Assembly: GCA_964628355.1 (NCBI GenBank)
Contig: CAZVNB010000033.1
Span: forward strand, 4,965-68,964
Direction of reading: 5' to 3'
DNA: 64,000 nucleotides
Source: an uncultured Planctomycetia bacterium
Lineage (GTDB): Bacteria; Omnitrophota; Gorgyraeia; 2-02-FULL-51-18
A model generated the notes under the pieces. That model saw nothing but the letters and a program-made list of their open reading frames with translations, was not told the DNA's origin and searched no databases. Made by a program: the position numbers and the translations under genes. Within the stretch, counting starts at the first letter, position 1. Every line of letters starts with the position of its first letter. Positions 6,425-51,644 of the stretch are shown here, piece by piece.

Positions 6425-6463
6425 GACGGCACATGCATAAGGGGCTTTTTTATAATTATTTCC

Positions 6464-7399: not shown

Positions 7400-7413
7400 T
7401 TTTCTTTCTCTGT

Positions 7414-8199: not shown

Positions 8200-8371
8200 T
8201 ATTATTTGGTCCGGTAAGGGGGGTTTATGAGGCGGGAATAGTGCATGAGCCGCTAGCAAACTGCCTGCCTGTCTTGGATAAGGTTGGCGATGCGATTGTA
8301 CCCCGCGAGGTGTCATCACCATGCAATATATAACTTTAAAATTAGATAATCAAACTTAATTTCTATTAAAT

Positions 8372-32506: not shown

Positions 32507-32586
32507 AAGGGGACTGGAGGCCGCACGTTAGTGCTAGAGTAACTGAAACAGCCGCACGTTTCAAGAAAATTGAGTCTTTGAAGTTT

Positions 32587-33897: not shown

Positions 33898-33900
33898 GCC

Positions 33901-35295: not shown

Positions 35296-35324
35296 AAGAC
35301 CTTTCTTGAAAAGAAAAATTCCAT

Positions 35325-37294: not shown

Positions 37295-37295
37295 T

Positions 37296-38543
37296 TTATT
37301 TTCCTGAATAAATTTTAGTAATAATGGAAACGGCCTGGCCGTTAAAACCAAAAGCATTTGTCATCGCATATGACATCTGTTTTTTAAGCGCATTTCCAGA
37401 AACTATTTGAAAGCCCCAGTCACGCTCTGATTTCGAAAAATTTGCAACCGCCGGAATCATTTGATGCTGCAGTGCAAGTGTCGACACAATCAAATCCAGC
37501 GATCCCGCCGAAAAGCCGGTAAAACCGGTAATGGGTTTGGATGCGCTGACAAATAAATTTTTACCGGTGCCATTAAAAACCTCGGAAATCGCCTGCGCCT
37601 CACGTCGATCCTCGTCTTTTAAACCGAGACCCGTTGCCTGTAAATAATGAACATCCGAAGCCTTAAGACCGGCCTCTTTTATCGCCGCTTCCATTGCTTT
37701 TTTTCTTCCACAGTTCGATGCAGAACCAAATCCCATCACTTCCGCGTAAATTTTCGCGCCTCTTTTTTTGGCATGCTCCAGCTCTTCCAAAAGCAAAAAA
37801 CCGGCACCCTCGCCCACCACAAACCCATTTGCTGCGGCATCAAATGGACGAAAATTTGCGCTACCCGTGTGATTGAGAGCTCCCAGCAGCTGATACTGCG
37901 ACATCCCGACGGGATTCACTTTGGATTCGGCTCCGCCGGCCAACATGAGATCCGCACCTCCTCGCTCGATAATGCGAAAAGCTTCTCCCACCGCCTGCAA
38001 TCCCGCCGAAGCTCCCGTCGTAATGGTGTTGTTCATCCCCTGCAAATCAAACAAAATAGAAATATGACAAGCAGACATGTTTGGCAAATATTTGAGCAGC
38101 CACAGAGGAAATAACGTTGAAAGTCCGCTGTCTCCGAACCGCGCCAGATTCATTTTTCCTGAATCATCCAGCGAATTTTGAACGCTGTAGGCCAACTCAT
38201 CCAACTCGTGATTTAAAACACCCGATCCTACGATCACGCCAAAACGTTCATGATTAAAAGACCAGGTCTCTACGTTGGAATCATCGATCGCAAGGCGCGC
38301 GCCGGCCACAGCCAATTGAATATCGCGCGCCATGACCTTGAGAGCTTTCTTCTGTGTCACGTATTTTTCAGGGGAAAAGTCGCGAATCACGGCCGCCAAA
38401 ACTTTGCGTTCGTACGATCCGCCAAATTCATCCAAAAAACTTATCCCGGAGCGACCTTCGATTGCCGCGGCCCAAAGAGCGTCAGTTCCTTCTCCAACAG
38501 CCGTGATCGCTCCCAATCCCGTAATAACCACGCTTTTTTTCAA
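37296..38543 (-). CDS. KAS-like protein lacking the catalytic triad (chain-length-factor-like partner)
   Basis: Thiolase fold, but ITTGASAG replaces TACSS (Cys to Ala), LQATGLG replaces HGT (His to Gln), and the second His is absent (ITGFTG). Confidence 0.8.
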   Translation of the reverse strand: MKKSVVITGLGAITAVGEGTDALWAAAIEGRSGISFLDEFGGSYERKVLAAVIRDFSPEKYVTQKKALKVMARDIQLAVAGARLAIDDSNVETWSFNHERFGVIVGSGVLNHELDELAYSVQNSLDDSGKMNLARFGDSGLSTLFPLWLLKYLPNMSACHISILFDLQGMNNTITTGASAGLQAVGEAFRIIERGGADLMLAGGAESKVNPVGMSQYQLLGALNHTGSANFRPFDAAANGFVVGEGAGFLLLEELEHAKKRGAKIYAEVMGFGSASNCGRKKAMEAAIKEAGLKASDVHYLQATGLGLKDEDRREAQAISEVFNGTGKNLFVSASKPITGFTGFSAGSLDLIVSTLALQHQMIPAVANFSKSERDWGFQIVSGNALKKQMSYAMTNAFGFNGQAVSIITKIYSGK

Positions 38544-39022
38544 ATGACGATTCCTTCACTTTTTTTTGCGATTTTATAAACGTCATAGTGGTTTAAAAAA
38601 TGATCGTTAAAAACCACTGTTTTGTCCGATGAACCCGTTAAGGGGTCCATCGTGACCAAAAGCATTCTCGCCGTCGCGATACATTCGCTCCCCTGCTTTA
38701 CCTCACCGGAAATCCAAGCGCCTTCTTCACGCTCATTTTCGATGCGCGCCACAATCGTCAATTGACAAGGCGGTAGCACTGTTTTTTCGAAGCGCGCCAT
38801 CTCTATTTTTGCCAAAATAACCTCTTTTTTGAAATCAGTTCCCAAACCAAATAAAACGCCGCCAGCCTGCGCGATCATTTCAATAAAGAGTGGTTCCGGC
38901 ACACGCGGATGTCCCGGTTCATGTTCAGCAAAAAAATCCTCATTCCCATCAAAAGCTTTGATGGCTCTTGAAAAATCACCTTTCTTGAGCACCTCGAAAC
39001 GATCGACTAAATCCCAGCGCAT
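38540..39022 (-). CDS. Hotdog-fold 3-hydroxyacyl-ACP dehydratase (FabA/FabZ-like)
   Basis: HEPGHPRVPEPLFIEMIAQAG resembles the FabZ His-containing motif; 160 aa. Confidence 0.6.
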   Translation of the reverse strand: MRWDLVDRFEVLKKGDFSRAIKAFDGNEDFFAEHEPGHPRVPEPLFIEMIAQAGGVLFGLGTDFKKEVILAKIEMARFEKTVLPPCQLTIVARIENEREEGAWISGEVKQGSECIATARMLLVTMDPLTGSSDKTVVFNDHFLNHYDVYKIAKKSEGIVI

Positions 39023-39399
39023 GGGGCCTGCTCACGGGGATAGCAATAGGCAATGACATAAAAACGGCTTTTGGCGAACAAAATTTCAAGCGGGTTTTTT
39101 CTGGAAATCTTTTTGTGAAATATTCCTTTTAGGCGAAGAGAAAATCGGTTTTTTCCGGGTAAAATTTCAATGCACTTAAATCCCGAAACGCCCATCCAAG
39201 AAACGCCAAGCGCTTTAAACACGGCCTCTTTCGCAGACAAAATCATCGCAAGTGCTTGATAAGGTTTGTTGGAGGTTTCTACGTACGTGACTTCGGCAGA
39301 ACATAAAAAACTACCGAGTTTTTCGCGATGTGCTTTATAAAACGTCTTGGCTTTCTTCCATTCAAACATATCCACCCCAAGGGGCCAGGCGGCATTCAT
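39007..39399 (-). CDS. Holo-ACP synthase / 4'-phosphopantetheinyl transferase (AcpS-like)
   Basis: ~125 aa; SAKEAVFKALG matches the AcpS motif. Confidence 0.55.
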   Translation of the reverse strand: MNAAWPLGVDMFEWKKAKTFYKAHREKLGSFLCSAEVTYVETSNKPYQALAMILSAKEAVFKALGVSWMGVSGFKCIEILPGKNRFSLRLKGIFHKKISRKNPLEILFAKSRFYVIAYCYPREQAPCAGI

Positions 39400-39406
39400 T
39401 GGAAAA

Positions 39407-39802
39407 CTACTTGTGGGCGATTTGGAGCTTTCCCGAGAGATAATCCACGATCATACCGACCGTGAAAAGATTGCCCAGGTTGGACACTTGCGGATGTTTC
39501 GTGAATTCGTCCCAATTGACATTGGACATTTTTGGTTTCAATTCTTCGATGCCAGCCGGCGTGACAAGACCATTTTTTACGAAACGCGCATCGGTGAGAA
39601 TTTTTTCCGGAAAAAGTTCTCCTTTAGGTATTTTGATTTTGAACGCTTTTTCCAAGCGAAATACGATATCAAGAAAGTCGATGGATTCCGCGCCCAGGTC
39701 CTTAATCAATGAAGAATTTAAAGCTATTTTTCCTTCATCGACTTTTAGCGCTTGTGAAATTATGCTCTTGACGTTTTTAACAATGTTATCTTTTTCATGC
39801 AT
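39407..39802 (-). CDS. Acyl carrier protein with a C-terminal extension
   Basis: DLGAESIDFLDIVFRLEKAF (phosphopantetheine Ser in a DSL-like context); 131 aa. Confidence 0.65.
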   Translation of the reverse strand: MHEKDNIVKNVKSIISQALKVDEGKIALNSSLIKDLGAESIDFLDIVFRLEKAFKIKIPKGELFPEKILTDARFVKNGLVTPAGIEELKPKMSNVNWDEFTKHPQVSNLGNLFTVGMIVDYLSGKLQIAHK

Positions 39803-39833
39803 ATCCGTTTCTTAAGACTCCTTCTTTAATTCT

Positions 39834-40292
39834 TTAATTCCGCGCCGCAACCAGTGAAAAACTGGCCGTGAGCACCCGGCCAATGGGATTTCCACTATCG
39901 CCCATCAAATCCATGCGACCTTCCAAAAATGCCCGAGGTCCTTCTTTCTTCATCAATCGCGCGAAAATCCGCAACAAATTACCTGGTTTTACAAATTGAC
40001 CGAACTTTACCTCATGCACCTGTTCCAACCTCAGGAGCTGCGTGTCCGAGTTTTCCCAACCACCCAGAAGAAGCATGGCTGCTTGTTTGAGCGATTCCAA
40101 GAGTAAAACCCCTGGCATCACCGGAAAATTTTCGAAATGATCTTGCAGGAATTCTTCATTTCCTTTCAACGTGAAAAAAGCCGTAATACTCTGGTTCTTT
40201 TCTACTTCCGAAATTTTATCAATAAAAGAGAATGCACCCAAATGTTTTTTTATCCCTGAAAAAAGAGCAATTTTAACTCCGTAATATAGCAT
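39834..40292 (-). CDS. FabZ-like 3-hydroxyacyl-ACP dehydratase
   Basis: HFENFPVMPGVLLLESLKQ is the classic FabZ active-site motif. Confidence 0.75.
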   Translation of the reverse strand: MLYYGVKIALFSGIKKHLGAFSFIDKISEVEKNQSITAFFTLKGNEEFLQDHFENFPVMPGVLLLESLKQAAMLLLGGWENSDTQLLRLEQVHEVKFGQFVKPGNLLRIFARLMKKEGPRAFLEGRMDLMGDSGNPIGRVLTASFSLVAARN

Positions 40293-40328
40293 GAAAGTGG
40301 AGAAAATACCAAGCAGTTAGTCCGAAGG

Positions 40329-41619
40329 GGTGACGTCAATCAAATTGGGTAAATTGCTTTAAGGGTTTGTTCTTCCAGTTGTTGTTTAAGTGCGTAAAGA
40401 TGGCGTAAATGATGCGTTCACTTGAGGCGATATTCGAGAAGCAGGAGAACACTCTCGTTCTACGCCTAACCTCTCGGAAGGCCCGTTCAATGGCGTTGGT
40501 TGTCCGGATTTTGATCTGGTGCGACTTCGGACAGTCCAGGAAGGCGAGCATCTCTTCCAGGTCCTTTTCAAGACAATGAACCGCTTGGGGCGCCCTCTTC
40601 TGCCAGTCCCTCTTCCAGGCCTTGAACTCGGCGACGGCCTTGAGTCGGTTTGGTGCTTGGTAGATTCCTCGCGCCTGGTCAATCAACTCTTCTTCGTAGG
40701 CCTTCTTGCAGTAATTGGAGACATTCCTGAGCTTGTGAGCCCAACAGCGTTGGATCTTGGAGTGAGGATAGACGAGTTCAGCGGCTGTTTTTAAACCGGC
40801 TGATCCGTCCATGGCGATGAGTTTTAGGTTCTCCCCTTTAAGGCCTCTCCGATAAAGAGAATTCAAAAGAGACTCCCATGAAGCTTGGGACTCCCCCTTG
40901 GCGGTCATGAACCCGATGAGTTTCCTTTCTCCAAAGACTGTGATGCCGTAAGCTACAAGGATCTTTCGGTTGTGATACCTGCCGTTGTAGAGGGTTTTCA
41001 AGGTAATGCCGTCCAGGATGAGATATTGGTATTCATCAAGAATGGGCGCTCTGTGGAATTGTGCGACTTTTTTATCCAGTCTCTTTGTGATATTGGAGAC
41101 CGTGCCGTGGGAGACTTTTGTGTCTAGGAGCTTAGAGATGGCCTCTCCCACACGGCGGGTTGAGACTCCGGCGAGGAAGATGCCTTCTATCGGGTCTAGC
41201 ACCAGATCCTGATGGCGGTGGTATCTTTTAAAGACTCTTGTTTTAAATTCAGCTCCACGGGCTCTTGGGACCTGAATGTCTTCGACTAGACCAAACTGGG
41301 TCACAAGACCACGGGAGTAATAGCCATGCCGGTAGACGGAGGCCTTGCGGTCGTAAGGAGCGCGTTTTAGTTCCTGGGTCATCTCTTCGGCCATGGTTGA
41401 TTCCATCAGTTCCTTCAAGAGTGTTTTTACCTTTTCTTTGGCATTTTCCTGCCAGAAGTTTTCTTTGACCTCTACCCACCAATCTTTTAGAATCTGGGAT
41501 TGTGGGAGTGTTCTTCCGTGTGCTTCCATGGGCGTATTCCTCCTTTGTGTGATAACTAGAAGGATACGCCCTTTTCTTTTCCTACCTACTTGAATTTACC
41601 CAATTTATTTTACGCTACC
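40329..41619 (-). mobile_element. IS256-family (Mutator-type) insertion sequence, ~1291 bp
   Basis: A single transposase ORF flanked by imperfect ~27-bp terminal inverted repeats sharing the core AAATTGGGTAAATT (40342-40355 and 41594-41607 as the reverse complement). No clean target-site duplication detected. Confidence 0.8.
40336..41529 (-). CDS. IS256-family transposase (Transposase_mut)
   Basis: 397 aa; DDE region with conserved LILDGITLK ... MDGSAGL ... CWAHKLRN ... AIERAFREVRRR blocks. Confidence 0.9.
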   Translation of the reverse strand: MEAHGRTLPQSQILKDWWVEVKENFWQENAKEKVKTLLKELMESTMAEEMTQELKRAPYDRKASVYRHGYYSRGLVTQFGLVEDIQVPRARGAEFKTRVFKRYHRHQDLVLDPIEGIFLAGVSTRRVGEAISKLLDTKVSHGTVSNITKRLDKKVAQFHRAPILDEYQYLILDGITLKTLYNGRYHNRKILVAYGITVFGERKLIGFMTAKGESQASWESLLNSLYRRGLKGENLKLIAMDGSAGLKTAAELVYPHSKIQRCWAHKLRNVSNYCKKAYEEELIDQARGIYQAPNRLKAVAEFKAWKRDWQKRAPQAVHCLEKDLEEMLAFLDCPKSHQIKIRTTNAIERAFREVRRRTRVFSCFSNIASSERIIYAIFTHLNNNWKNKPLKQFTQFD

Positions 41620-42140
41620 TTTTCTGTAGAATTATCGAAGAACATCCAGCTGTCAACTTTATCTTTATAGATAAGTTGAAAATTATCGAGCGATCTTTGG
41701 AATCTCCTTCTCACGTCTTTTTCCGGAACGTTATGGCCTCCTTTTGAGACTCTCTGCTTTATTCGAGCCAGAGAAAGATGGGCATCAGGCACCCATAGAA
41801 AAAATAAAAAAATCTGATACCCCTCAGCCCTAAGCTGCGAAAATAATCGAGCGTTGGTTTTACCTGAAAGAGTGGTTTCAAACCCAAAATCCTTTAAGTG
41901 CGTAGCATATTCACGTATTCTCTTCAGAACTGTCCGACACGCCTGCATCGCTTCTCCTTCTGGGGAAAAGGGAGACAGCCCTTGGGCAACAAAATCTGCA
42001 TTAATAAAATTCGGGCAATGCACATAACTATGCAAAAACTCTTTAGCAAAAGTAGTTTTGCCCGAGCCGTTCGGGCCAGCGATGATGTAGAGGTTTTTAG
42101 GGTTCAAGTATTGCGTCCAACCTGTTCGATACTTTCCCAT
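41610..42140 (-). CDS. Zeta-toxin / COG4185-like P-loop kinase; the 3' end lies inside the IS terminal repeat
   Basis: Walker A IIAGPNGSGKTT with INADFVAQ downstream. The last codons (..VA-stop) are encoded by IS right-end sequence (41610-41619). Confidence 0.6.
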   Translation of the reverse strand: MGKYRTGWTQYLNPKNLYIIAGPNGSGKTTFAKEFLHSYVHCPNFINADFVAQGLSPFSPEGEAMQACRTVLKRIREYATHLKDFGFETTLSGKTNARLFSQLRAEGYQIFLFFLWVPDAHLSLARIKQRVSKGGHNVPEKDVRRRFQRSLDNFQLIYKDKVDSWMFFDNSTEKVA

Positions 42141-42500
42141 ACAATAGCGTAGGCCGCGTTCCATAATCGACTGAAATTATCATATTCATCCTTATTCGAA
42201 GGTAGCCCTATTTGTGTAAATGATGATTTGAGGATCTCTCCCTTGTAACTGACTTCTATCGATATCATGGACGCATCCAGGCCCACATAATCAAGTTTCC
42301 CCGTCTTTTGAAGCTCAGTCAGTTTTGCATAAACATCCGAGACAATTCTCTGGCCTTCACCAAACGGTTTTATTGACACTTCCGTAACTTTCCCTGTACG
42401 AATGCGGCCCGGATAATAACTTACTTTAACATAATCCTCACCAGCCCAGACTGACCTGCAAACTAATAAAAAAATGACGACTAAAAAACATTTCTTCATG
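42104..42500 (-). CDS. Secreted hypothetical protein
   Basis: Start ATG 42500 with GGAGA RBS. Signal peptide MKKCFLVVIFLLVCRSVWA. The listed 5' extension is leader sequence. Confidence 0.5.
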
Positions 42501-42514
42501 TTTTTCTCCTGGAA

Positions 42515-42710
42515 TTTAAAAAATAAACACCCCGCCTCCAAACTGGAAGCGAGGCGTCTTCTTTATTTTGTTACGCTTAACTACCCAGATTTGGGGTGCG
42601 AATGAGCGTCCAAATTGGCTCCCCGGCTTTGGACGCCATTCGAACCACAGAATCCCGCCAGGAAGTGGTGCTTTTGATCAAACTCTATAGGGTCCGTCGA
42701 AAGGGTCTTT
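42515..42710 (-). repeat. Repeat family A, copy 1 (full length): a structured ~190-bp element with a long hairpin and a terminator adjacent to the downstream gene's RBS
   Basis: Near-identical to 44786-44920 and to 46545-46636 (truncated). Hairpin 42599-42642: ~16-19 bp stem, 13-nt loop. Minus-strand terminator 42527-42557 (10-bp GC-rich stem) followed by UGUUUAUUUUUU. Confidence 0.8.
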
Positions 42711-42748
42711 TAGTATCTTTGGGGTGAAAATCCAATAAAAAGCGAGCT

Positions 42749-43189
42749 TTACCTTGCAACAGGAGGAGCTGACGAAGTCTCTTGCCTTTTTCCTAGTTCT
42801 TTTCTTTGAGTCTTAGTATTATTTACAGCCACCCACACAAGACCGCCCAAATCTAAAGCGGCGACAATTCCGGCAGTAGCGGGATTACCGTTAATTGCAA
42901 TTTCCTTGGCAACATACAAACCAAAAATCGCGATCGAAGTCCCTGCTATCATTCCCAAATAGGACTTCACAAGGTTTGAATTAACAACCTTGTTTTCTAG
43001 GCCCATTCTGTGATCGGATTGCTTCTCAGCCATGCGAATTATTCGTTCGGCCGAGCCGGGAACAATATTATTATACTGCTGTAGAATCTGTGGAGCCGGA
43101 ATGGGGCCGCTGATTTCCGTATAGGTTGCTACGCGTGCTGGCGGAGGATTGCTGGGATTATTTCGGGCAGGGGGATTATTATCTGGCAT
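42749..43189 (-). CDS. DUF2335-like membrane protein
   Basis: Pro-rich N-terminus, conserved PAPQILQQYNNIVPGSAERII.MAEKQ block, and two C-terminal TM segments. Confidence 0.45.
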   Translation of the reverse strand: MPDNNPPARNNPSNPPPARVATYTEISGPIPAPQILQQYNNIVPGSAERIIRMAEKQSDHRMGLENKVVNSNLVKSYLGMIAGTSIAIFGLYVAKEIAINGNPATAGIVAALDLGGLVWVAVNNTKTQRKELGKRQETSSAPPVAR

Positions 43190-43442
43190 CCGACGCTAAC
43201 TCTTGAGACGCCAAAATCAAATGATCGCCAACCGATGCCCAGTCGCTGTAAAGAGCTTGATTATCAGCTTCCTGCGGGGTCAAATTTTCATTATAAACAT
43301 CCTGGTTGCCGAGGATATCCAAAACCCTAGACATCCCTTCGGTCAGCGAAGGATTGGCAAACAAACGGCCCGATCTAAAAAACAGTGTGCTATTCATAGT
43401 TATATTATGCCATATGAAAACGAAGGCTGACTAATTAAAAGA

Positions 43443-43471
43443 TCCCGGCTCCACGGGAAGCCGGGGCCAGC
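43443..43471 (-). terminator. Intrinsic-terminator-like hairpin 3' of the 43608-44054 gene
   Basis: Minus strand CCCGGCU-UCCCGUGG-AGCCGGG followed by AUCUUUUAAUU. A related but degenerate sequence lies at 45670-45698. Confidence 0.45.
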
Positions 43472-43607
43472 AAAACACGAGGTCTTGCTGGGATGATGTT
43501 GCAAGCATACCATCCACAACAAAGCTTAGTCAAGAAATTGAGTTTCAAAAAACTGCCTGTGAAAATGAACAAATCGCGTAGGCTGAGAAATTCGTGCCGA
43601 TATCCGC

Positions 43608-44054
43608 TTATTGCTTAATCTCGCTCTTCATCTTTTGTGGGAACTCAGCGATAATCTCTGGTTTCTTAAATAATCTGTAAATATAAAAGAAAATTAGTCC
43701 CATAATGATAAACATTGCCAACATTCCTACCCAAACCACCAAAAGCTTCATATCCACCTCGTGACCAGATTGTTTATTCGTCACTGCAGGGACAACAGTA
43801 GCCAACAAAAACCCAAAGAAACCCAGAATTGCCATGCATATGCTCAAGAAAGATAAGTAGACGAGAGCTACACGCGCAATATTTTTTCGCAATAGAATTC
43901 CCACACCTAATGGCACAAGAATTAGAGGTAAATAAACCCCTCTCAACAACCCAAGTAATCCCCACAAAACGAGTACCCAGCTAATAATATTGATTTTAGT
44001 TTTTGATTTCATAGGGGATCTTTGATACAAGAGAACTTTTATATTTACGTACAA
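43608..44054 (-). CDS. Small integral membrane protein, hypothetical
   Basis: Four predicted TM helices; 148 aa. Confidence 0.4.
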   Translation of the reverse strand: MYVNIKVLLYQRSPMKSKTKINIISWVLVLWGLLGLLRGVYLPLILVPLGVGILLRKNIARVALVYLSFLSICMAILGFFGFLLATVVPAVTNKQSGHEVDMKLLVVWVGMLAMFIIMGLIFFYIYRLFKKPEIIAEFPQKMKSEIKQ

Positions 44055-44700
44055 ATTCCAGAGCTATATTCGCGACGGTTAAACCAATTTGAAATAGATA
44101 TTCATGCACTACCGGTACAATCAGCTTCTGATCTTTTAAAGAGTACTCCATTGTGAGGCTTTCCACCGGAGATCCAAAAACTCCGTGAGTTGAATCTGCA
44201 TGTGCCGCCTCTTGCCCAGCATATCTTTCGATAAGAAATCTCGGTGTGAAACTTCTCATCTTGGGAGTACGGCCTTCGTCAGGAACTTCCCAATCAAGTA
44301 AAAACCCGTTTTCCAGCCACTCACTTAAATCAATGGATGAATATAGTGATTGGCCGTCTTTTTCAGCAAACACAATTGGTAAACGACCTCCGGCTAATTG
44401 GGTAAATAATGCTCTTTTCTTAACTTGTTGGACAATCTTTCCGGTTGTAGAATCCATTTCTGTAATTTGTATAAAGCCGTTTTGATTAAGTTTCATCACA
44501 GAAAATATATCTTTGGTTTCTGCCGCTAATTCAGACATCAGTCCATCACCACTTTGTGATCCAACCAGAACTCTGAGTCTTATTCCGATGTTCTTTACTT
44601 CGTCAAAATTGTGATCGACAGCAAACCTATCGCAACTGTCCAACAATAATTGCGCATGGCTTCTGAGATCTTCTAATCTTTGTTGAAAATCCTTTTTCAT
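43996..44700 (-). CDS. Hypothetical protein
   Basis: ORF. The likely start is ATG 44700 (MKKDFQQRLEDL); the upstream part of the listed ORF overlaps repeat copy 2. Confidence 0.4.
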   Translation of the reverse strand: MKKDFQQRLEDLRSHAQLLLDSCDRFAVDHNFDEVKNIGIRLRVLVGSQSGDGLMSELAAETKDIFSVMKLNQNGFIQITEMDSTTGKIVQQVKKRALFTQLAGGRLPIVFAEKDGQSLYSSIDLSEWLENGFLLDWEVPDEGRTPKMRSFTPRFLIERYAGQEAAHADSTHGVFGSPVESLTMEYSLKDQKLIVPVVHEYLFQIGLTVANIALEFVRKYKSSLVSKIPYEIKN

Positions 44701-44785
44701 TTGATTCCATTTCCTAAGTAAGATACCCGCCCCTAACCGGGAGCGAGGTGTTAAGCATACAAACACAACGTTCAATACTCACTCG

Positions 44786-44920
44786 AACTGGGGTTCGAAT
44801 GAGCGTCCAAATTGGCTCCCCGGCTTGGACGCCATTCGAACCACAGAATCCAGCCAGGAAGTGCTACTTTTAGTCAAACTCTATAGGGTCCGGCGAAAGG
44901 GACTTTTGGTGTCTTTCGAG
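44786..44920 (-). repeat. Repeat family A, copy 2 (core conserved; gene-proximal terminator segment divergent)
   Basis: 44786-44920 aligns with 42592-42708 at >90% identity, including hairpin 44796-44838. Confidence 0.8.
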
Positions 44921-44947
44921 AAACCTTTCACCTAAAAAGAACAGAAA

Positions 44948-45268
44948 TCAAACGAATTGCAAAACCTGCTCGCTTCGCTTTCTATGCACCGCTTTGACTT
45001 TGAAGACAATGCCCAAGACGTTAAGAAACCGGATCAACGTTTCAAGCGTAATGTTTGATCCGTTTTCTATCCTGGCAACCACTTGCTGTTTGATTCCCAG
45101 TTTACCTGCAAGCTGTTTTTGGGTCAGGCCTTTTTTTTCTCTATATTCTACAAGATGTTCTAAAAGCTCAAGCTTTGAGGCTTCAAGCTCTATGCGGGCC
45201 TCTCTTTTCTTATCTTGGCCGATGAGCTTTTTTCTAACTTCTTCGTAACTTTCTCCGATATGTTTCAT
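44948..45268 (-). CDS. higA: HigA-like XRE-family antitoxin
   Basis: HTH_XRE: LTQKQLAGKLGIKQQVVARIENG. Sits immediately downstream of the toxin with a 4-nt overlap. Confidence 0.75.
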   Translation of the reverse strand: MKHIGESYEEVRKKLIGQDKKREARIELEASKLELLEHLVEYREKKGLTQKQLAGKLGIKQQVVARIENGSNITLETLIRFLNVLGIVFKVKAVHRKRSEQVLQFV

Positions 45269-45609
45269 GATAGCGCCTCTCTTTCCAAATAATCTGCTTT
45301 TCTTTTTAAAGCGATTTCAAGCTCTCTTTGCGGTATGTCACTCGTTCTTTTCAAAAAAGCGTGCAGCAATAGAACCTGTGTTCGCCTGTGAAAGCAACAT
45401 AAGATCCTGTTCCGATCAGGCCTAAGTTCATACAAGCCAAGCCCACCTCCAAGGCTATCCGTTATGGGTCTTCTAAGACCAAAACCAAACTGTGCCAACC
45501 TGTCCAAATAGGCGATCGCTTTATCTTGCTGCCTTTTTGGCGCTGAACTTAGATACTCGTGGACAGGAGAATTACCCTTTTCATCCTTGTAGAAGATTAT
45601 TTCAAACAC
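45265..45609 (-). CDS. higB: HigB-like (Gp49 / RelE-ParE superfamily) toxin
   Basis: Gp49-family pattern: FL..L....QAKI..L...G, then GLYELR, then LLHAF.K. Toxin-first gene order is typical of higBA. GTG start with GGAGA RBS. Confidence 0.7.
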   Translation of the reverse strand: MFEIIFYKDEKGNSPVHEYLSSAPKRQQDKAIAYLDRLAQFGFGLRRPITDSLGGGLGLYELRPDRNRILCCFHRRTQVLLLHAFLKRTSDIPQRELEIALKRKADYLEREALS

Positions 45610-45630
45610 TTGTTCTCCGGTCTTATCTCA

Positions 45631-45658
45631 AGTATACAGCATATAAGCTGTATGTCAA
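45631..45658 (-). promoter_or_regulatory. higBA promoter with palindromic operator
   Basis: Minus strand TTGACA, a 16-nt spacer, then TATACT. The spacer contains the perfect palindrome ACAGC-TTATAT-GCTGT, overlapping -10. Confidence 0.6.
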
Positions 45659-45708
45659 GTGGGTAAAAACCCGACTCCACAGGAAGCAGAGGCCAGCACT
45701 TACTTGGG

Positions 45709-46506
45709 CTATTTATTTTCAGGTTCTATCTTTGCCGGTTGAAATACGGTGCCAGGAACGTAGCGATAACCTTGTGGAATTGTCGGAAACTTTTGTTGAT
45801 TGAAAGCCTTAAGCTCTCCCTCGGTGATAACGTGCTTATCAATATCAGGAACGTTAACCTTATTGCTTTCGCGCCATTCCCATTTAAGTTGATTAATGGC
45901 AGTTTCGGCTGCATAGAGAGCGCCCATAAGTTCTTCTTGTTTTTTGGTAATAATCTCCCCGGTGTCGGTATCAAAGATTAGCGTACGATCATCGATCATC
46001 TGAGCCTCAAAGAGAAGCTTATTTCCATAGGACCGAGAAAAACCCAGTATATTTTTAATAACCGTATAATGGCTCTCGCTTGATGACACATTATTAGCAG
46101 ACCCAGCAGTATCCAACGTTGAGTAAGACTTCAGAAGTTTACCGGTTTTGTAGAAGGCTAGCGCGAGTTCTCCCGCTGAGGCTTCATGTCCTCTAGACCA
46201 CGCTCCGGTTTGAACCACACAAACTGTATCAGGACTCGCAGCAAAACCATCAAGAAAAATATTCGGTGAGTACCAATCATATTGGTGCACAAGGAGATCA
46301 TCTTTGTCTGTAACCTGATAAATTTTAGTTTTACCTTTCAAACCATAACTTTCGGCAGGGATTGATTTGGCGTAGAAACCGCCCCATTCGTTCGATTTGA
46401 CATATGGTCGATTACCCGCTTCATCATCAGCAAAAGAAAGCTGGGTTAAAGAAATAGATATTCCAAATACGAAAATAATTGCGAATAATTTTTTCATGTC
46501 AATCAT
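45709..46506 (-). CDS. Secreted hypothetical protein
   Basis: Signal peptide MKKLFAIIFVFGISISLTQLSFA; 265 aa. Confidence 0.45.
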   Translation of the reverse strand: MIDMKKLFAIIFVFGISISLTQLSFADDEAGNRPYVKSNEWGGFYAKSIPAESYGLKGKTKIYQVTDKDDLLVHQYDWYSPNIFLDGFAASPDTVCVVQTGAWSRGHEASAGELALAFYKTGKLLKSYSTLDTAGSANNVSSSESHYTVIKNILGFSRSYGNKLLFEAQMIDDRTLIFDTDTGEIITKKQEELMGALYAAETAINQLKWEWRESNKVNVPDIDKHVITEGELKAFNQQKFPTIPQGYRYVPGTVFQPAKIEPENK

Positions 46507-46544
46507 TAAAATCGATTCCTTAACATTAGACTCCGGAACAATAC

Positions 46545-46636
46545 GCCCCGCCTCTAAACTGGGAGCGAGGCGTCTTCTTTATTTTGTTACGCTTAACTAC
46601 CCCGACTTGGGATGCGAATGAGCGTCCAAATTGGTA
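46545..46636 (-). repeat. Repeat family A, copy 3 (truncated within the long hairpin at the GIY-YIG junction)
   Basis: 46545-46636 matches 42528-42617 (terminator segment plus the left half of the hairpin). Homology stops at ...CGTCCAAATTGG and is followed by the palindrome GATCAAT-CACGTG-ATCGAC. Confidence 0.75.
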
Positions 46637-46640
46637 TCGA

Positions 46641-46916
46641 TCAATCACGTGATCGACTTAAGCTTCTTAAAGAATAAAAATCACCATGAATCAGTGCCAA
46701 CTTCTTGGCGCGACTCCAGCACTTAATCTGTGCTTCACGCTTTTTAGCGTCTACTTTGGATCGATGTTCTTCTTGATAAACCAAGCGAGCGGGTGGATTG
46801 TAGCCGGTATAATGCGACGTGCCTTCTCGATGTTCCCTCAGCCGCCGATTAAGATCGTTCGTTACACCTGTATAAAATGATCCGTCTGCGCATTCTAAAA
46901 TATAAACCGTCCACAT
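46641..46916 (-). CDS. GIY-YIG nuclease-family protein
   Basis: VYILECADGSFYTGVTNDLNRRLREH is the GIY-(x10)-YIG motif; 91 aa. Confidence 0.75.
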   Translation of the reverse strand: MWTVYILECADGSFYTGVTNDLNRRLREHREGTSHYTGYNPPARLVYQEEHRSKVDAKKREAQIKCWSRAKKLALIHGDFYSLRSLSRSRD

Positions 46917-47190
46917 TGATATTGTCCTTCGACGCGTTCGCTTCGCTCACTTGCTCAGGATGGATTCGGTGGTGAGCAAGGCGGATGGCCAAAAGGCCAT
47001 CCGCCGCGTCGAATCCACTCCACGAGCAGATATCCCAGGGAACCTTAATCTGCTCAAAAAGCACTGTTAAATTTCAAAAAGCACTCAAAAACACCACCCG
47101 ACTTACCCGGGCCAGTCAATTCTCCCACGCCGAAGAGATGGCCGCGCTTTGGAGCGATTCTCCAGAGTTGTTGCGGTGGGTGAAGGTGTC

Positions 47191-47709
47191 TTAAAAAACA
47201 CTATTATAAGGCAACACAAAGTGAGGTTCTTTAGCTTGCCTCCATAAAACCTCGACTGCCTGATTTAACACATTGCTCCAAAAAGTCATTTGACCACTGA
47301 TGTCTTCAATTTGACCGCTTTCGGACATTTTTATCCATACATTGATATTCCTGGTGGATTTAGGATCCAAGATGTAAGGGGCCGGTACAATGGTGAAGGT
47401 GCAAGTATTATCGTTGTTCATGACAAAGTTTTGTATCGTGTTATCCGTCGTTGAAAAAGTTTCGATTTTTAAAGCAACATCCTTCTGTTGGGGAAATGGA
47501 GTCATATAAATATGCTTCCATGCAATCTCGGACTTTCCATCAACATTTCTAATAAAAATATTTGCTATAATCTTAGTCCCTGGCATCTTCCCATTTTCGT
47601 ATACATCTAAATATTCCGTACCACCAACTCCTAAATCATCATGTAAGCCGGCATAAGCACAAGCTGTAAGAGTTAAAAATAATAAAACTACTAACACAAC
47701 GCGCTTCAT
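47191..47709 (-). CDS. Secreted hypothetical protein
   Basis: Signal peptide MKRVVLVVLLFLTLTACAYA; 172 aa. Confidence 0.45.
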   Translation of the reverse strand: MKRVVLVVLLFLTLTACAYAGLHDDLGVGGTEYLDVYENGKMPGTKIIANIFIRNVDGKSEIAWKHIYMTPFPQQKDVALKIETFSTTDNTIQNFVMNNDNTCTFTIVPAPYILDPKSTRNINVWIKMSESGQIEDISGQMTFWSNVLNQAVEVLWRQAKEPHFVLPYNSVF

Positions 47710-47735
47710 GAATAATCCTTTAATTTAATCTCGCT

Positions 47736-48524
47736 TTACTCAAAAGTAAAAGTACCGTCCGAAGTGATTCCCAATCGGTCTCGTCGTTCGGCGCGCAAGT
47801 CACGTACCGGATTGCCCCCCCAAGCCCCCTTGGCAGGAATTTTAGTGCCCTTAGGTAGATAGCTGCAAGGAGCAATGGAGGCCCCGTCTCCGATTTCGCA
47901 GTCGGGCATGATCACCGAGCCAAGACCAACTGAGGCGTTATTGCCTATTTTGGTGGGTGCCAAGCGCAAAAAACCACGTTCCGAGGCATGACAAATTAGC
48001 GCTACACCTCCACCGATCAGCACATTGTTGCCTATTTCAAGCATCGATAGATCCGCAAGACCAGCTGTATTTATATTCACTCCTTCCCCTACCTTGGCTC
48101 CCATGAGACGATAAAACAACGTTTGAAACGGCGAAAGACGTAAAACATCCAAAAAGGCGCTATTGGCGATTAAAATCATAGAGTTGTATCCCATCCACCG
48201 AAGGGCTTCTGGGGAATGAATGGCGTAAAGACCCGATGCAATCTTAAATCTGAAAATATTCTTTGTGAGAACGCAAAGAAAAATCAGTGTTGTGCCAAAA
48301 ATAAAATAACCCAATGAAATTGAAAAAGAAAATGCCAGCACTCTGAGCCAAAGTGCGTATGCCACTGTCAATTTCCACGTGCCGATAAGAAAAAAGACCA
48401 TGGGAAAAAGAGAAAAACCTAGCACAAAAATAGCTATAAAATGCAGAAAAATAATCCAAAGCTCAAAACGCGTGGCTTCCCACTTGGCTTTTTTACTTTT
48501 ATCATTCGGACTAGCTTCAGTCAT
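47736..48524 (-). CDS. Membrane-anchored hexapeptide-repeat (left-handed beta-helix) acyl/acetyltransferase
   Basis: N-terminal ~4 TM helices. C-terminal hexapeptide repeats (GAKVGEGVNINTAGLADLSMLEIGNNVLIGGGV...IGNNASVGLGSVI...IGDGASIA). Confidence 0.6.
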   Translation of the reverse strand: MTEASPNDKSKKAKWEATRFELWIIFLHFIAIFVLGFSLFPMVFFLIGTWKLTVAYALWLRVLAFSFSISLGYFIFGTTLIFLCVLTKNIFRFKIASGLYAIHSPEALRWMGYNSMILIANSAFLDVLRLSPFQTLFYRLMGAKVGEGVNINTAGLADLSMLEIGNNVLIGGGVALICHASERGFLRLAPTKIGNNASVGLGSVIMPDCEIGDGASIAPCSYLPKGTKIPAKGAWGGNPVRDLRAERRDRLGITSDGTFTFE

Positions 48525-48604
48525 GCCGCTAATTTAACATTCTTATCTACACTGTGCAAAGGTAAATACAGCAACACTGTGCATAATCGCCTTTACTAAG
48601 TAAA

Positions 48605-48839
48605 GGTTACCAGCACCCTTACTTGTGCCCTTACACATCTAGTTGGCAGGACACTTTTTTCTTTTAAGCAAGACAGAGTATGCAAGTGCAGTTTCTTGGT
48701 AACTAATTCCATCTCCTTGTGTCCCCTCCACTGATTAGGGTATGTGCGTACGTGCTTTTAATGTCTTGCTTAAAAGAAAAAAGTGTCCTGCCAACGTGAG
48801 TTTGAGTGGATAGCTTTACCGAGAATAAGGGTGCTGGCA
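48605..48839. repeat. Compound inverted-repeat element (inverton- or MITE-like)
   Basis: A perfect 32-bp inverted repeat (48643-48674 and 48763-48794) flanks an 88-bp core. An outer 16-bp inverted repeat (48605-48620 and 48824-48839) has one mismatch. The element lies in the divergent intergenic region between 47736-48524 (minus) and 48928-49677 (plus). Confidence 0.8.
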
Positions 48840-48927
48840 ACTGAGTATAGCTCAGTTAATGAGATATTCTTAATGCTGGTTCGTGAAATTCTTAATTAAA
48901 AGAACATGAGTATGCTAAACTCACCGC

Positions 48928-49677
48928 ATGAGTCAAACACAAAAGTTTATTTTGGTAACTGGAGGCACCCGGGGAATCGGAAAAGCGATCACCCTGTCGC
49001 AGGTAAAAAAGACTTGTACGATTTTTTTAAATTACCTACGTGACGATGCTTCCGCGATGAAGGTGAAAAAAACCGCCGAAAAAAAAGGTTCCCGTGTCGT
49101 TCTTCTGCCAGGCAATGTCGGTGATGCGGAAACGGTATCCTGCCTATTTCAGTCAATTCAAAAAGAAACAAACCGCCTAGATGCCCTGATTCACAGCGCG
49201 GCACTCGGGGTTTTTAAACCCGTCCATCAATTGCGCGTGAAAGATTGGGATATTTCACTCGACGTGAATGCGAAGGCATTTTTGCTCCTCACGCAGGCAA
49301 CGTTGCCATTGATGAAAAAATACGGTGGTAAAATCCTTGCAATCTCAAGCCTCGGATCACGGCGTTTCACACCCAATTACGGAGCCATCGGCATTTCGAA
49401 AGCAGCGCTAGAAAACCTGGTGCGTTATCTTGCTGTTGAACTGGCACCGCATAAAATTCATGTAAATGCGGTGTCAGGGGGACTGGTCGAGACCGATTCT
49501 CTCAAGATGTTCCCCAATTTTGAGTCAATGAAGAAAGCTTACCTTTCTCGAACGCCGGGAGCTCGTCTGGGAAAACCACAAGATATTGCGGATATCGTTT
49601 CCTTTCTTTTAAGTCCTCAGGCTAACTGGATTTACGGTCAGACGATTATCGCGGATGGCGGCTATTCTCTCTTTTAA
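48928..49677 (+). CDS. SDR-family oxidoreductase (FabG-like)
   Basis: TGGTRGIGKAI Rossmann motif, NAA and S...Y..K catalytic elements. Confidence 0.8.
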   Translation: MSQTQKFILVTGGTRGIGKAITLSQVKKTCTIFLNYLRDDASAMKVKKTAEKKGSRVVLLPGNVGDAETVSCLFQSIQKETNRLDALIHSAALGVFKPVHQLRVKDWDISLDVNAKAFLLLTQATLPLMKKYGGKILAISSLGSRRFTPNYGAIGISKAALENLVRYLAVELAPHKIHVNAVSGGLVETDSLKMFPNFESMKKAYLSRTPGARLGKPQDIADIVSFLLSPQANWIYGQTIIADGGYSLF

Positions 49678-50836
49678 TTCTCTGGCTTTTTTCTATTCAT
49701 TCCTGGTCATCGCGGTTTGGACACGACGTGTTTTTTGGATGTCAAAGTTCCGAAAAACCAACCCACCTCTCAAACCCATCGAGCAGTCCAATATCCGGGT
49801 GAACGAGAAAATTTCCGTTATTGTTCCTGCGCGCAATGAGGAAAAAAATATTGCACGTTGTCTTTTTCATCTTTTAAGGCAAAATTATAAGAATTTTGAA
49901 ATTATTGTGGTGGATGACCGTTCCGATGACCGCACGGGACACCTTTTACAAAACTTCAAAGGGCTGTCCGAACTACCGTTTAAAATAATCCGTATCGAAA
50001 AACTCCCTTCAGGCTGGACAGGGAAAAACCATGCCATGTTCGTGGGATCAAAAGCGGCAACAGGATCCTGGCTCCTTTTCACGGACGCGGACACAACGCA
50101 CCAACCGGCATCACTTGGCACAGCCATTAGTTGTGCGGTTGAAAATAAAATCGATTTCCTAACACTTGCACCGGAAACTGAATGTCGTACGTTTTGGGAA
50201 AAAACGGTGCAACCTCTCGCCGTTTCGAGCCTCGCGCTGTGGTTTAACACAGTAGAAGTGAACAATCCACTTTCAAAAATTGTGCTTGCCAATGGTCAGT
50301 ATATTTTGATCCGGAAAAATATCTATGAAGCGGTGGGAGGAAATGAGTCCGTAAAATCAGAAGTGGTGGAAGATGTGGAACTGGCCAAAAAAGTAAAAGC
50401 CGCGGGTTACGCGATTCGCTTTCTTAACGGCACCGAGCTTTATTCGACACGCATGTACAGCTCGCTAAAAGAAATTAAGACCGGCTGGACGCGTATCTAC
50501 ACTTATCTATTCAATAAAAAAGTTCCGCTGATCCTGCATAAAATATTTCTATTTTTATTTTTTTCTATCCTCCCTTTCATTGTTTTAGGTCTTGAAAAAT
50601 TCTGGTTTTTTTCCGGGTCGGCGCTTTATAATCCGACGGTTTGCGTAATATCTCTTTTTGCCTGCACATGGATAATTCTTATTCGTTTTTTTGGAAACAA
50701 GCTTCTAAAATGCAATCCTTGGTACGCCCTGCTTCACCCCGTCGGGTCGCTGGTGATGTTGTGGGTTCTTGCCTCTTGCCTGGGAAGAATAATTTTCAAC
50801 CAACCGTCGGTGTGGCGCGGGGATTCTTACCGTTAA
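49655..50836 (+). CDS. Family 2 glycosyltransferase with C-terminal TM region
   Basis: VIVPARNEE, IIVVDDRSDD and LFTDADT (DXD) motifs. An alternative start at ATG 49739 is possible. Confidence 0.7.
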   Translation: MAAILSFNSLAFFYSFLVIAVWTRRVFWMSKFRKTNPPLKPIEQSNIRVNEKISVIVPARNEEKNIARCLFHLLRQNYKNFEIIVVDDRSDDRTGHLLQNFKGLSELPFKIIRIEKLPSGWTGKNHAMFVGSKAATGSWLLFTDADTTHQPASLGTAISCAVENKIDFLTLAPETECRTFWEKTVQPLAVSSLALWFNTVEVNNPLSKIVLANGQYILIRKNIYEAVGGNESVKSEVVEDVELAKKVKAAGYAIRFLNGTELYSTRMYSSLKEIKTGWTRIYTYLFNKKVPLILHKIFLFLFFSILPFIVLGLEKFWFFSGSALYNPTVCVISLFACTWIILIRFFGNKLLKCNPWYALLHPVGSLVMLWVLASCLGRIIFNQPSVWRGDSYR

Positions 50837-51644
50837 AATTATTGGACGCCACAGTAACTTTCGTGGATGGCCAATAGAGTTGATAAATCTTTTGTTGGGC
50901 AAATTTTTTAAATTCCGCATCTTGGCTACCGACATTTAGCTTTAAATTTTCATACGCGTACACCCCCATCGGCTGGTTTTGCCAGTCAAAAAGCGCCATC
51001 TGATCTGGTAATGCCGTTTCTTGATCAAAGTGAACTATCGCGCGATGCGAAAAAAAACCATCGTCCGGCTTCGATCCGGAAAATATAACATCCACCGTTT
51101 CGCCACCACCCAACTTCTGAGACGCAATCACTTGAAGCTTATTTTCTCTGGCGCCTTTCAGCACGGCTTGAGTAAAATCATTGAGGAAAGAACCAATGCC
51201 AGCATCCTCGATATTATAAGATTCACTTCCCTCGCGCACCCAGGGACTTGTCGGATCGAGAAATATTACGGGCGCCAGTCCCAACAGCAGCCCTGGCTTG
51301 TGAATTGCAAGCTTCCCGTCATGTTTTCCCCGTTCATATAAAACCTGCAGTCCTTTTTTTGGCAGGTTTGTCCAACCCATGAATATTTTGAATGGCTTTT
51401 CAAATTTAAGAAAAATTGTTTCCTTAGGCCCTAAAACATCCCCAGATTTTTCCTGCTTTTGGAACATCGCTTTATAATCCTGAATGGTTCCGTAGGCCTT
51501 TAAGCTCTTCTCCAACACTGCCCCTAGACGCACACGATTAGAATCCGGATCCTTGCTGAGATCTTTGAGTTGAAATATTTCTGTCGCGTGAAGCACAGGC
51601 AAAAATAAAAAGAATAGTAGGAAAGTTAGAATGGTTTTCTTCAT
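50796..51644 (-). CDS. Secreted hypothetical protein
   Basis: Signal peptide MKKTILTFLLFFLFLPVLHA; 282 aa. Confidence 0.45.
   Translation of the reverse strand: MKKTILTFLLFFLFLPVLHATEIFQLKDLSKDPDSNRVRLGAVLEKSLKAYGTIQDYKAMFQKQEKSGDVLGPKETIFLKFEKPFKIFMGWTNLPKKGLQVLYERGKHDGKLAIHKPGLLLGLAPVIFLDPTSPWVREGSESYNIEDAGIGSFLNDFTQAVLKGARENKLQVIASQKLGGGETVDVIFSGSKPDDGFFSHRAIVHFDQETALPDQMALFDWQNQPMGVYAYENLKLNVGSQDAEFKKFAQQKIYQLYWPSTKVTVASNNFNGKNPRATPTVG

Follow-up and report, generated by a model that had tools for sequence, protein, structure and literature searches.

The subject of this analysis is an accessory region in a 64-kb stretch of DNA from an uncultured bacterium (contig CAZVNB010000033.1 of assembly GCA_964628355.1; the whole stretch is called the window below), whose host is a Candidatus Omnitrophota genome. 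About 7.4 kb of this window, from about 40313 to 47735, is foreign DNA that is inserted relative to the host's kin. The cargo includes a HigBA toxin-antitoxin (TA) pair, a gene pair encoding h72 and a DUF2335 membrane protein, a truncated zeta-toxin-like kinase gene, a gene for a GIY-YIG nuclease-domain protein, and genes for three predicted signal-peptide proteins. We propose that the region is a mosaic islet, that is, a decayed tandem array of small integrative elements without an integrase that were joined at attachment (att)-type sites, one end of which was later truncated by an insertion sequence (IS) of the IS256 family. From the sequence comparisons we give this reading a probability of about 0.65, and this estimate includes two of its parts, namely that the three copies of a repeat in the region (repeat family A) are relics of att sites derived from the end of a tRNA-Asn gene, and that the 30-nt core of this repeat was the attachment sequence of site-specific integrative elements of this lineage.

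Insertion within a conserved lipid cluster

Species-representative genomes were scanned with the hexapeptide transferase encoded at the right-hand edge of the islet, and 13 relatives, labelled as metagenome-assembled genomes of Candidatus Omnitrophota or 'Planctomycetia', were found to encode this protein at 65-82% identity. All genes of 40.3-48.5 kb in the window are on the minus strand. When the window genes were compared by tblastn with the loci of the relatives, a conserved gene order was found, which runs DXS, h325, TatC, alpha/beta hydrolase, DUF1571, GT2 (family 2 glycosyltransferase), short-chain dehydrogenase/reductase (SDR) and hexapeptide transferase, and continues with a FabA-like gene, an SDR in some genomes, acyl carrier protein (ACP), phosphopantetheinyl transferase (PPTase), a further FabA-like gene, two ketoacyl synthases (KAS), HAD, class III aminotransferase and AMP ligase. 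The FabA-like gene follows the transferase gene after 50-200 nt in nine of the 13 relatives (L003, L005, L007 and L009-L014; such handles denote the compared loci), and none of the islet genes is present at that junction in these nine, while the FabA-like, ACP and KAS genes of the window lie at or below 40292. Because the two flanks are adjacent in nine relatives, the foreign DNA can be delimited to about 40313-47735. Furthermore, the relatives have the right-hand genes (hexapeptide transferase, SDR, GT2, DUF1571 and alpha/beta hydrolase) in synteny with the left-hand ones, and the islet therefore splits one conserved cluster, within the spacer between two predicted transcription units.

An earlier note, made from the letters of the window, had placed a horizontally acquired island at 41610-48524, between a lipid locus and core genes, and would have given up this idea had the same gene order been conserved in distant relatives. 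The order is not conserved, since nine Omnitrophota relatives do not have the islet genes, and together with the deviating composition and the occurrence of the modules in unrelated contexts this bears out the acquisition. The comparison with relatives that the note had recommended for setting the boundaries shifted its limits, however: the IS256 element (40324-41624) belongs to the islet, the hexapeptide-transferase gene (47736-48524), which is present in all relatives, does not, and both flanks are parts of the lipid cluster rather than two different kinds of neighbourhood. The two boundary markers, both of which lie outside the insert, are as follows.

40283..40312, minus strand: left marker, predicted promoter of the FabA-like sub-operon, CTTGGTA..N18..TGCTATATT, recognised by the motif of the relatives and by a promoter-like match with an extended TG
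47736..48524, minus strand: right marker, membrane-anchored hexapeptide-repeat transferase with N-terminal membrane helices (Pfam Hexapep)

The motif CTTGG(T/C)A...TGCTATATT is common to the spacers between the hexapeptide-transferase and FabA-like genes of the nine relatives and is retained in the window, where the left end of IS256 is located about 11 nt upstream of it. No tRNA gene was found in these spacers of the relatives. On the right, the final 14 codons of the hexapeptide-transferase gene diverge from the relatives past ..AERR. The other four relatives (L002, L004, L006 and L008) have other DNA after this gene, for instance genes for MsrB, Ppx and thymidylate kinase plus a 1729-aa open reading frame (ORF) without a Pfam match in L004, and genes for a lipid A acyltransferase, an ABC-F ATPase and a malic enzyme in L006. 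Alternative islands at the same site in L004 and L006 were considered as well and dropped, because the genes there are of a housekeeping type, and these two cases were read as splits of the cluster. In two relatives, extra genes separate the hexapeptide transferase from the SDR, namely a PIN-domain gene (L008:3695-4688) and an 842-aa ORF (L004:1948-4923). The flanks of the hexapeptide-transferase gene look like recurrent breakpoints, which would make them a plasticity point of the lipid cluster.

The islet is also the strongest tetranucleotide outlier of the window (4-kb windows over 40-49 kb, z +2.0 to +2.6) in a k-mer analysis of the kind that the note had recommended. Its GC content is 0.426, compared with 0.460 elsewhere in the window, and the GC content at third codon positions (GC3) is 0.32-0.42 for most of its genes (0.44 for HigA and 0.49 for h72), compared with 0.43-0.50 in the flanks. 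The composition therefore deviates in the manner by which genomic islands are recognised.

Repeat family A and its tRNA-Asn core

All three copies of repeat family A are located in the islet and none elsewhere in the 64 kb. Three copies had been noticed before and were found again, at 42527-42720, 44789-44916 and 46543-46634; what the repeats consist of had not been recognised.

42527..42720, minus strand: copy 1, a full unit with arm I (42625-42720), core GGGGAGCCAATTTGGACGCTCATTCGCACC (42595-42624) and trailer T1
44726..44916, minus strand: copy 2, with arm I, core (44792-44821) and a diverged trailer with a terminator hairpin (44726-44747)
46543..46634, minus strand: copy 3, from the CCA of the core onward, with trailer T1 and terminator

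On the coding strand, copy 1 consists of an arm of ~95 nt, the 30-nt core and trailer T1 of ~70 nt, which ends in a 16-bp terminator hairpin (42525-42559). Identity is 91.5% over 129 nt for the aligned part of copy 2 (44789-44916; E 1e-47) and 93.5% over 92 nt for copy 3 (E 9e-36); in copy 3 the end of the GIY-YIG gene stands in place of the left half of the unit, and the copy begins 6 nt past the stop codon of that gene. The core is made up of the last 9-12 nt of tRNA-Asn(GTT), the 3' end of which is GGGAGCCA, and about 20 nt of the tRNA 3' trailer.

Public metagenome and viral contigs were scanned with an invariant 20-mer of repeat A, and eight loci were obtained, which correspond to six distinct places. 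In an alignment of these loci the core alone was universal, and the arms (at least two unrelated types) and the trailers (two or three types) were combined independently of the neighbouring genes; two further 20-mers, taken from trailer T1 and arm I, had no match in viral contigs. Since copy 3 starts at CCA and the arm copy of L017 breaks at GGAG, the breakpoints cluster at the tRNA end. The tRNA and Rfam scans of the window gave nothing at the gathering threshold, and at E<=1 two sub-threshold matches were obtained (osmY RNA and GHRLOS). The idea that arm I is a degenerate whole tRNA was tried and dropped, as the alignment to tRNA-Asn is weak beyond the last 12 nt plus a GGTTCGAAT motif.

At the other loci, core copies are found directly after tRNA-Asn, beside large serine recombinases, or at the junctions of shuffled h72-DUF2335, zeta-like kinase and HigBA modules. 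In L024, a tRNA-Asn with a group I intron ends in ...GGGAGCCA and is followed directly by ATTTGGACGCTCATTCG, and the gene for a 577-aa large serine recombinase abuts this site. L023 has a second occurrence of its tRNA-Asn end, CGGGGAGCCAAT, at a core copy 1.5 kb further downstream, and a two-gene zeta module lies between the two. A 12.7-kb element in L022/L017 (L022:85-12850) is bracketed by tRNA-Asn and a core copy. Its genes specify two serine recombinases (309 and 542 aa), of which the last in order has its end within the core, together with a Rep-like protein and a family-A DNA polymerase; the order in L017 is recombinase, core, T1, three genes (142 aa, 139 aa and zeta) and arm I. In L021, a degenerate 26-nt fragment of the tRNA-Asn 3' end together with the core heads a HigBA-like module, and the flanking ORFs, as assigned by eye, are leuB-like and asd-like. 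L025 and L026, which are one genome in two assemblies, have an islet of 4 kb that is flanked by a peptidase M17 gene and by alcohol dehydrogenase (ADH)/glutamate synthase genes, in the order h72-DUF2335; core and T1; three small ORFs, zeta and a 61-aa gene; and HigBA, with core copies at two junctions and neither a tRNA nor a recombinase in this islet.

The proteins of the L025/L026 islet are identical to those of the window at 98% and 95% for the h72-DUF2335 pair, 60% for zeta and 82-88% for HigBA, and the nucleotide identity is 92% for the h72-DUF2335 module (to L025:9593-10425, the left end of which is abutted by a core copy) and 81% for the HigBA module (to L025:12910-13625). Such unequal identity levels indicate that the modules have separate histories. 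The h72-DUF2335 pair is also conserved in L027-L030, where it is found alone between glnA and lpxB (L027), beside leuA (L030), or within an element with the order type IV coupling protein (T4CP)-relaxase-...-h72-DUF2335-tyrosine-integrase, without the core (L028/L029). The modules of the islet are thus recurrent in unrelated chromosomal settings of other metagenomes.

As a side observation, the group I intron (Rfam, 70 bits) in the tRNA-Asn(GTT) gene of L024 (L024:4819-5438), a tRNA that was missed by ARAGORN, interrupts the gene after position 35 and contains an ORF of 114 aa, and a small GIY-YIG gene is located 55 nt upstream of the tRNA.

Cargo modules and their arrangement

The genes and modules between the repeats are listed below.

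42104..42499, minus strand: sp145, 131-aa signal-peptide protein with one N-terminal hydrophobic segment and no recognised domain
42749..43594, minus strand: h72-DUF2335 module (h72, 43179-43397; DUF2335 membrane protein, 42749-43189)
43608..44012, minus strand: 4-TM protein, 134 aa, four-helix membrane protein by predicted transmembrane (TM) segments
43996..44700, minus strand: h259, 234-aa cytoplasmic protein, paired with the 4-TM protein
44948..45698, minus strand: HigBA module (HigB/Gp49, 45265-45609; helix-turn-helix (HTH) antitoxin, 44948-45268)
45709..46506, minus strand: sp265, secreted beta-rich protein with one N-terminal hydrophobic segment
46641..46916, minus strand: GIY-YIG nuclease-domain protein, 91 aa (Pfam E 6e-16)
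47065..47190, minus strand: non-coding block with a terminator-like hairpin (47096-47112), 73% identical to L021:509-622
47191..47709, minus strand: sp172, orphan lipoprotein with lipobox LTAC and one N-terminal hydrophobic segment

In the direction of transcription the modules follow one another as sp172; GIY-YIG; sp265 with HigBA; h259-4TM with h72-DUF2335; and sp145 with the zeta-like kinase, and in several cases a terminator hairpin and a promoter-like site are part of the module itself. When the repeats are included, the coding strand reads sp172, then the non-coding block with GIY-YIG, then core-T1-sp265-HigBA-arm I, followed by core-T1'-h259-4TM-(h72-DUF2335)-arm I, and by core-T1-sp145-zeta' and IS256. 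The units from core to core are 46634-44822 (about 1.8 kb), 44821-42625 (about 2.2 kb) and a truncated one of at least 1.0 kb from 42624 up to the IS. Their ends match those of the units of L017 and L025 and their cargo is different, which is the pattern expected from tandem accretion at a tRNA-Asn-derived att site. Modules separated by an integration sequence from the 3' end of a conserved gene are found at three junctions of the window and in L017, L021, L023 and L025.

The features listed in the earlier note (the zeta-like gene, three signal-peptide proteins, DUF2335 and 4-TM proteins, HigBA and GIY-YIG) were all recovered in their places by Pfam and hydrophobic-segment prediction, and its two related terminator-like hairpins are real. 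One of them (43444-43465) belongs to the h72-DUF2335 module, which has its left end at 43594 and a promoter-like site at 43404-43433, and the other, a degenerate one (45675-45691), lies at HigBA. The latter module has the organisation of a type II TA operon, in which the HigB/Gp49 toxin (PF05973, E 3e-19) comes first and overlaps the HTH_3 antitoxin (PF01381, E 8e-16) by 4 nt, and its strong promoter-like site TTGACA-16-TATACT (45631-45658, 11/12 positions matched) overlaps a palindrome. In all these respects it is like known HigBA modules, and it differs from them in being one cargo module of an islet, predicted from sequence. HigBA probably stabilises the islet.

For the DUF2335 protein, the Pfam match (E 4.7e-17) was accompanied by a match to PHROG 3996 (E 9e-33), which is annotated as 'membrane protein, moron' and was the only such label obtained for the hypothetical proteins; sp145, sp265, sp172, h72, the 4-TM protein and h259 had no match in Pfam, NCBIfam, PADLOC or PHROGs. 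The PADLOC defence models gave only weak P-loop matches with the islet proteins (E above 1e-4). The near-orphan h259 has eight relatives among 1.84 billion representatives, and its fold (AlphaFold2 (AF2) model, pLDDT 77) gave only generic helical matches, none of which was informative, while a PDB sequence-profile search was negative. Similarly, sp172 is a near-orphan with two relatives among 5.8 billion proteins and is absent from the relatives' loci; its gene has the lowest GC content in the islet (0.37) and starts 26 nt past the stop codon of the hexapeptide transferase. In the case of sp265, 44 unannotated homologues were found, one of which is encoded among housekeeping genes beside a Y1 transposase. 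The three signal-peptide proteins are mutually unrelated, and they are unrelated to the variable partners of the zeta gene at other loci.

The GIY-YIG protein is 37% identical to the product of the GIY-YIG gene just upstream of tRNA-Asn in L024, and the non-coding block 47065-47190 also occurs upstream of the HigBA-like module in L021. The strand opposite to 47065-47179 of this block has a short peptide similarity (FS.AEE.A.LW.DS), which is suggestive of a gene remnant, and no Pfam family was matched. The sub-threshold match to osmY RNA (46914-47004, minus strand, 22.7 bits, E 0.087) lies in the 275-nt spacer upstream of the GIY-YIG gene.

IS256 and the truncated zeta-like gene

The distal end of the islet is formed by two features.

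40324..41624, minus strand: IS256-family insertion sequence (transposase 40336-41529, Pfam Transposase_mut PF00872, E 4.6e-82)
41625..42164, minus strand (ORF 41610-42164): zeta-toxin/AAA_33-like P-loop kinase pseudogene (Pfam Zeta_toxin and AAA_33)

The zeta-like gene had been described before as affected by an IS, and this is the case: its final codons lie inside the right inverted repeat of IS256, and about 34 C-terminal residues are lost. The predicted protein, which retains the Walker A motif GPNGSGKT and scores 40.4 bits with Zeta_toxin PF06414 (cut-off 22.3), aligns just to residues 1-158 of homologues of 192-193 aa (L017, L023 and L025; 58-60% identity), and the 61-aa gene that follows zeta in L025 is missing in the window. 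A zeta/PezT pair, consisting of a full-length gene and an epsilon/PezA-type antitoxin, was not found here, as the upstream neighbour that overlaps the zeta-like gene, sp145, is a secreted protein, and the partners vary between loci.

The IS256 has terminal inverted repeats of 32 nt (40324-40355 and 41593-41624, 78% complementary) and is present once in the 64-kb window, and an exact database look-up of its transposase returned no record. Because its GC3 of 0.59 is unlike that of the islet, we suggest that the IS was a later and separate arrival. A target-site duplication, expected to be 8-9 bp, was not found, since the flanking octamers GTTAGTCC and TGTAGAAT differ; we read this as a sign of secondary deletion or rearrangement. 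Probably an insertion of IS256 was followed by an adjacent deletion, which would have removed the distal end of the islet with the C-terminus of the zeta-like protein, the small partner gene downstream and the outer junction. Such a deletion would have ended 11 nt short of the FabA promoter, leaving the lipid genes with their own promoter.

Evaluation of the mosaic islet model

In the model that we favour, integrase-less elements of ~2 kb, each with a T1 trailer and arm I as its two ends, would have been added to one another in a tandem row through site-specific recombination at the core, and the array, or its founding copy, would have landed at a secondary, non-tRNA site beside the GIY-YIG gene. 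Secondary-site integration or translocation is implied by the position of the array away from tRNA-Asn. The terminators and promoters of the modules, together with the intact FabA promoter, suggest that the insertion need not silence the lipid genes.

Several observations weigh against this model. Genes for a recombinase, an integrase or a tRNA are absent from the islet and from the whole 64-kb window, unlike in a typical tRNA-associated island, and for this reason site-specific integration at this locus is unproven. The outer junctions have no recognisable att site, as the left one was destroyed by IS256 and the right one abuts the tail of the hexapeptide-transferase gene; all three att-type repeats lie inside the islet, not at its flanks, and no repeat is present at the right edge. 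Serine recombinases adjoin the core in only two of the six distinct outside loci, and in opposite arrangements, and a tyrosine integrase adjoins the h72-DUF2335 pair in the core-less loci L028/L029, which makes the responsible enzyme ambiguous. It is also true that homologous recombination could just as well spread a unit of 200 nt with long arms, or that such a unit could be a regulatory or terminator cassette. Finally, a genome of the same species without the islet was not found, the closest relatives being only 82% identical in the flanking protein.

Other explanations for the repeats and for the region as a whole were therefore weighed. If repeat A were a functional RNA, such as a cis-regulatory leader, an attenuator or a small RNA that controls the downstream genes for secreted proteins, this would explain why a terminator hairpin ends each copy 25-45 nt upstream of an ORF start (sp145, h259 and sp265), why copy 1 folds better than shuffled sequences (z -3.55), and why a different hairpin replaces the terminator in L021 and L023, as though the terminator function were maintained. 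However, no Rfam match to repeat A was obtained even at E<=1, the long central hairpin of copy 1 is impossible in copy 3 and in the versions with a type II arm (L018 and L023), and the genes downstream of the repeats are mutually unrelated. Of the repeat, just the 30-nt core is universal; it has exactly the sequence of the tRNA-Asn 3' end with its trailer and elsewhere abuts recombinase, peptidase and GIY-YIG genes, and an RNA function therefore seems unlikely to us. We judge in a similar way the possibility that the region was acquired through IS256, by composite or one-ended transposition, and that the repeats resemble miniature inverted-repeat transposable elements (MITE) or repetitive extragenic palindromes (REP) that accumulate in accessory DNA. 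An intact-looking IS256 at one edge, a rearranged neighbourhood and the restriction of the repeats to intergenic spacers would fit such a history, but just one IS256 is present in the window, none bounds the opposite edge and a target duplication is absent, the GC3 of the IS sets it apart from the rest of the islet, and the related islets of L025/L026, L017 and L021 share modules and core without IS256; repeat A, moreover, has neither terminal inverted repeats nor flanking duplications.

A cluster of attC sites lacking an integron integrase (CALIN), with repeat A in the role of attC, comes to mind in view of the small, co-oriented and mostly functionless ORFs and the TA pair, separated by related imperfect-palindrome repeats of 88-93% identity. 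Yet an IntI-type tyrosine recombinase was found neither in the window nor in the related loci, the R''/L''...L'/R' layout of attC was not seen by inspection, the repeat is about 200 nt long and present at only three of about seven junctions, the modules have their own promoters and include multi-gene units, and a tRNA gene end as the core is not characteristic of integrons; a cassette array of this kind is very improbable. Least probable of all is an ancestral block that the relatives have lost by deletion, or a chimera made in assembly. The window does come from a metagenome-assembled genome, and the junction past the hexapeptide transferase is unstable to the extent that L002, L004, L006 and L008 also have other DNA there. 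On the other hand, the tight junction and the promoter are common to nine relatives spanning 65-82% identity, the composition is foreign, and the modules are found in unrelated contexts elsewhere. Furthermore, two junctions are reproduced exactly in short contigs of run ERR4904393, hexapeptide transferase/sp172 in L001 and sp265/HigB in L031, although both contigs may stem from the same reads; look-ups of the window proteins returned only short contigs of this run.

Comparison with known systems

One close parallel to the mosaic islet may be the composite staphylococcal cassette chromosome (SCC) and pseudo-SCC elements, which use the Ccr serine recombinase and the rlmH 3' end and which likewise form tandem arrays of small cargo elements, many of them recombinase-less, with direct repeats of the integration sequence between them. 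The L022 element, with two serine recombinases and a family-A polymerase, recalls the ccrAB plus CCPol content of SCC. The differences are that the target here is the tRNA-Asn 3' end with its trailer instead of rlmH, that the host belongs to Omnitrophota, and that the window copy has no recombinase and is off the canonical site, the action of a recombinase on the core being a candidate mechanism only.

Transfer RNA genes are the usual docking sites for integrative elements of this kind, and cis-mobilisable elements (CIMEs) are formed by decay and accretion of integrative and conjugative elements (ICEs) or integrative and mobilisable elements (IMEs). The islet is like tRNA-targeting islands and CIMEs in its direct repeats of a tRNA 3' end, its integrase-less, att-bounded elements, its TA module and its atypical composition, and the cargo is similar as well, with the h72-DUF2335 pair also found inside a relaxase/T4CP/tyrosine-integrase element. 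In contrast to both, it has no adjoining tRNA gene, its att-type repeats are internal instead of flanking, and it is sited in the spacer of a lipid cluster. For complete Omnitrophota chromosomes, variable loci have been reported whose cargo is dominated by recombinases and IS transposases, with TA genes as a minor component (bioRxiv 10.64898/2026.06.07.730766). Variable loci with mobile cargo are thus already known for Omnitrophota, and in the passages of that paper that were examined neither a tRNA-Asn-derived junction sequence nor the insertion site in the lipid cluster is described.

It is conceivable, although we consider it doubtful, that repeat A is the functional attachment site of a family of ~2-kb integrase-less cassettes in Omnitrophota, which would be mobilised in trans by the large serine recombinases of SCC-like elements, with arrays seeded at tRNA-Asn and at secondary sites such as the spacers of operon clusters. 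If so, a cassette system functionally parallel to integrons or SCC, built on a mimic of a tRNA end, would exist in an uncultured phylum. Apart from this possibility the region is a routine genomic islet, whose secreted orphan proteins sp172, sp145 and sp265 may merit attention, if at all, as candidates for factors of the cell surface or of interaction with a host. In either case, the 30-nt junction sequence GGGGAGCCAATTTGGACGCTCATTCGAACC, made up of the tRNA-Asn end and trailer, can serve as a searchable flag for such islets and their cargo in metagenomes, and the islet is an example of how accessory DNA enters small Omnitrophota genomes. The comparison also means that the lipid cluster around the islet is to be regarded as one conserved unit, the internal promoter of which was spared by the insertion.

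The lipid cluster and other features of the window

The split cluster, which spans 28841-40292 and 47736-52567 and is conserved across the Omnitrophota relatives, is similar to a type II fatty acid synthase (FAS) or polyketide synthase (PKS) cluster as judged from its predicted products. It contains two KAS, two FabA-like dehydratases, ACP, PPTase, AMP ligase, class III aminotransferase and HAD, together with the membrane hexapeptide transferase, SDR, GT2, DUF1571 and alpha/beta hydrolase, and a CDP-alcohol phosphatidyltransferase and a membrane protein resembling lysylphosphatidylglycerol (LPG) synthase are encoded upstream of it. Five relatives (L003, L005, L011, L013 and L014; e.g. L003:11230-11952) have an extra SDR/ketoreductase gene between the FabA-like and ACP genes, and the window and four other relatives have none.

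In the window, the hexapeptide-transferase and SDR genes are separated by a divergent spacer of 404 nt, compared with about 50-340 nt in the relatives, and this spacer contains a perfect inverted repeat with arms of 34 nt that are 86 nt apart (48642-48675 and 48762-48795). This inverted repeat (48642-48795) is present in a single copy among all the sequences compared, and it may represent either the insertion of a MITE-like element or a palindrome with a regulatory role. A second compositional outlier of the window is located at 4000-9000 (GC 0.417, tetranucleotide z about +1.75), where an N6/N4 DNA methylase gene (6464-7399) lies beside a 302-aa ORF without a recognised domain (7414-8322), and this part of the window is probably a restriction-modification patch.

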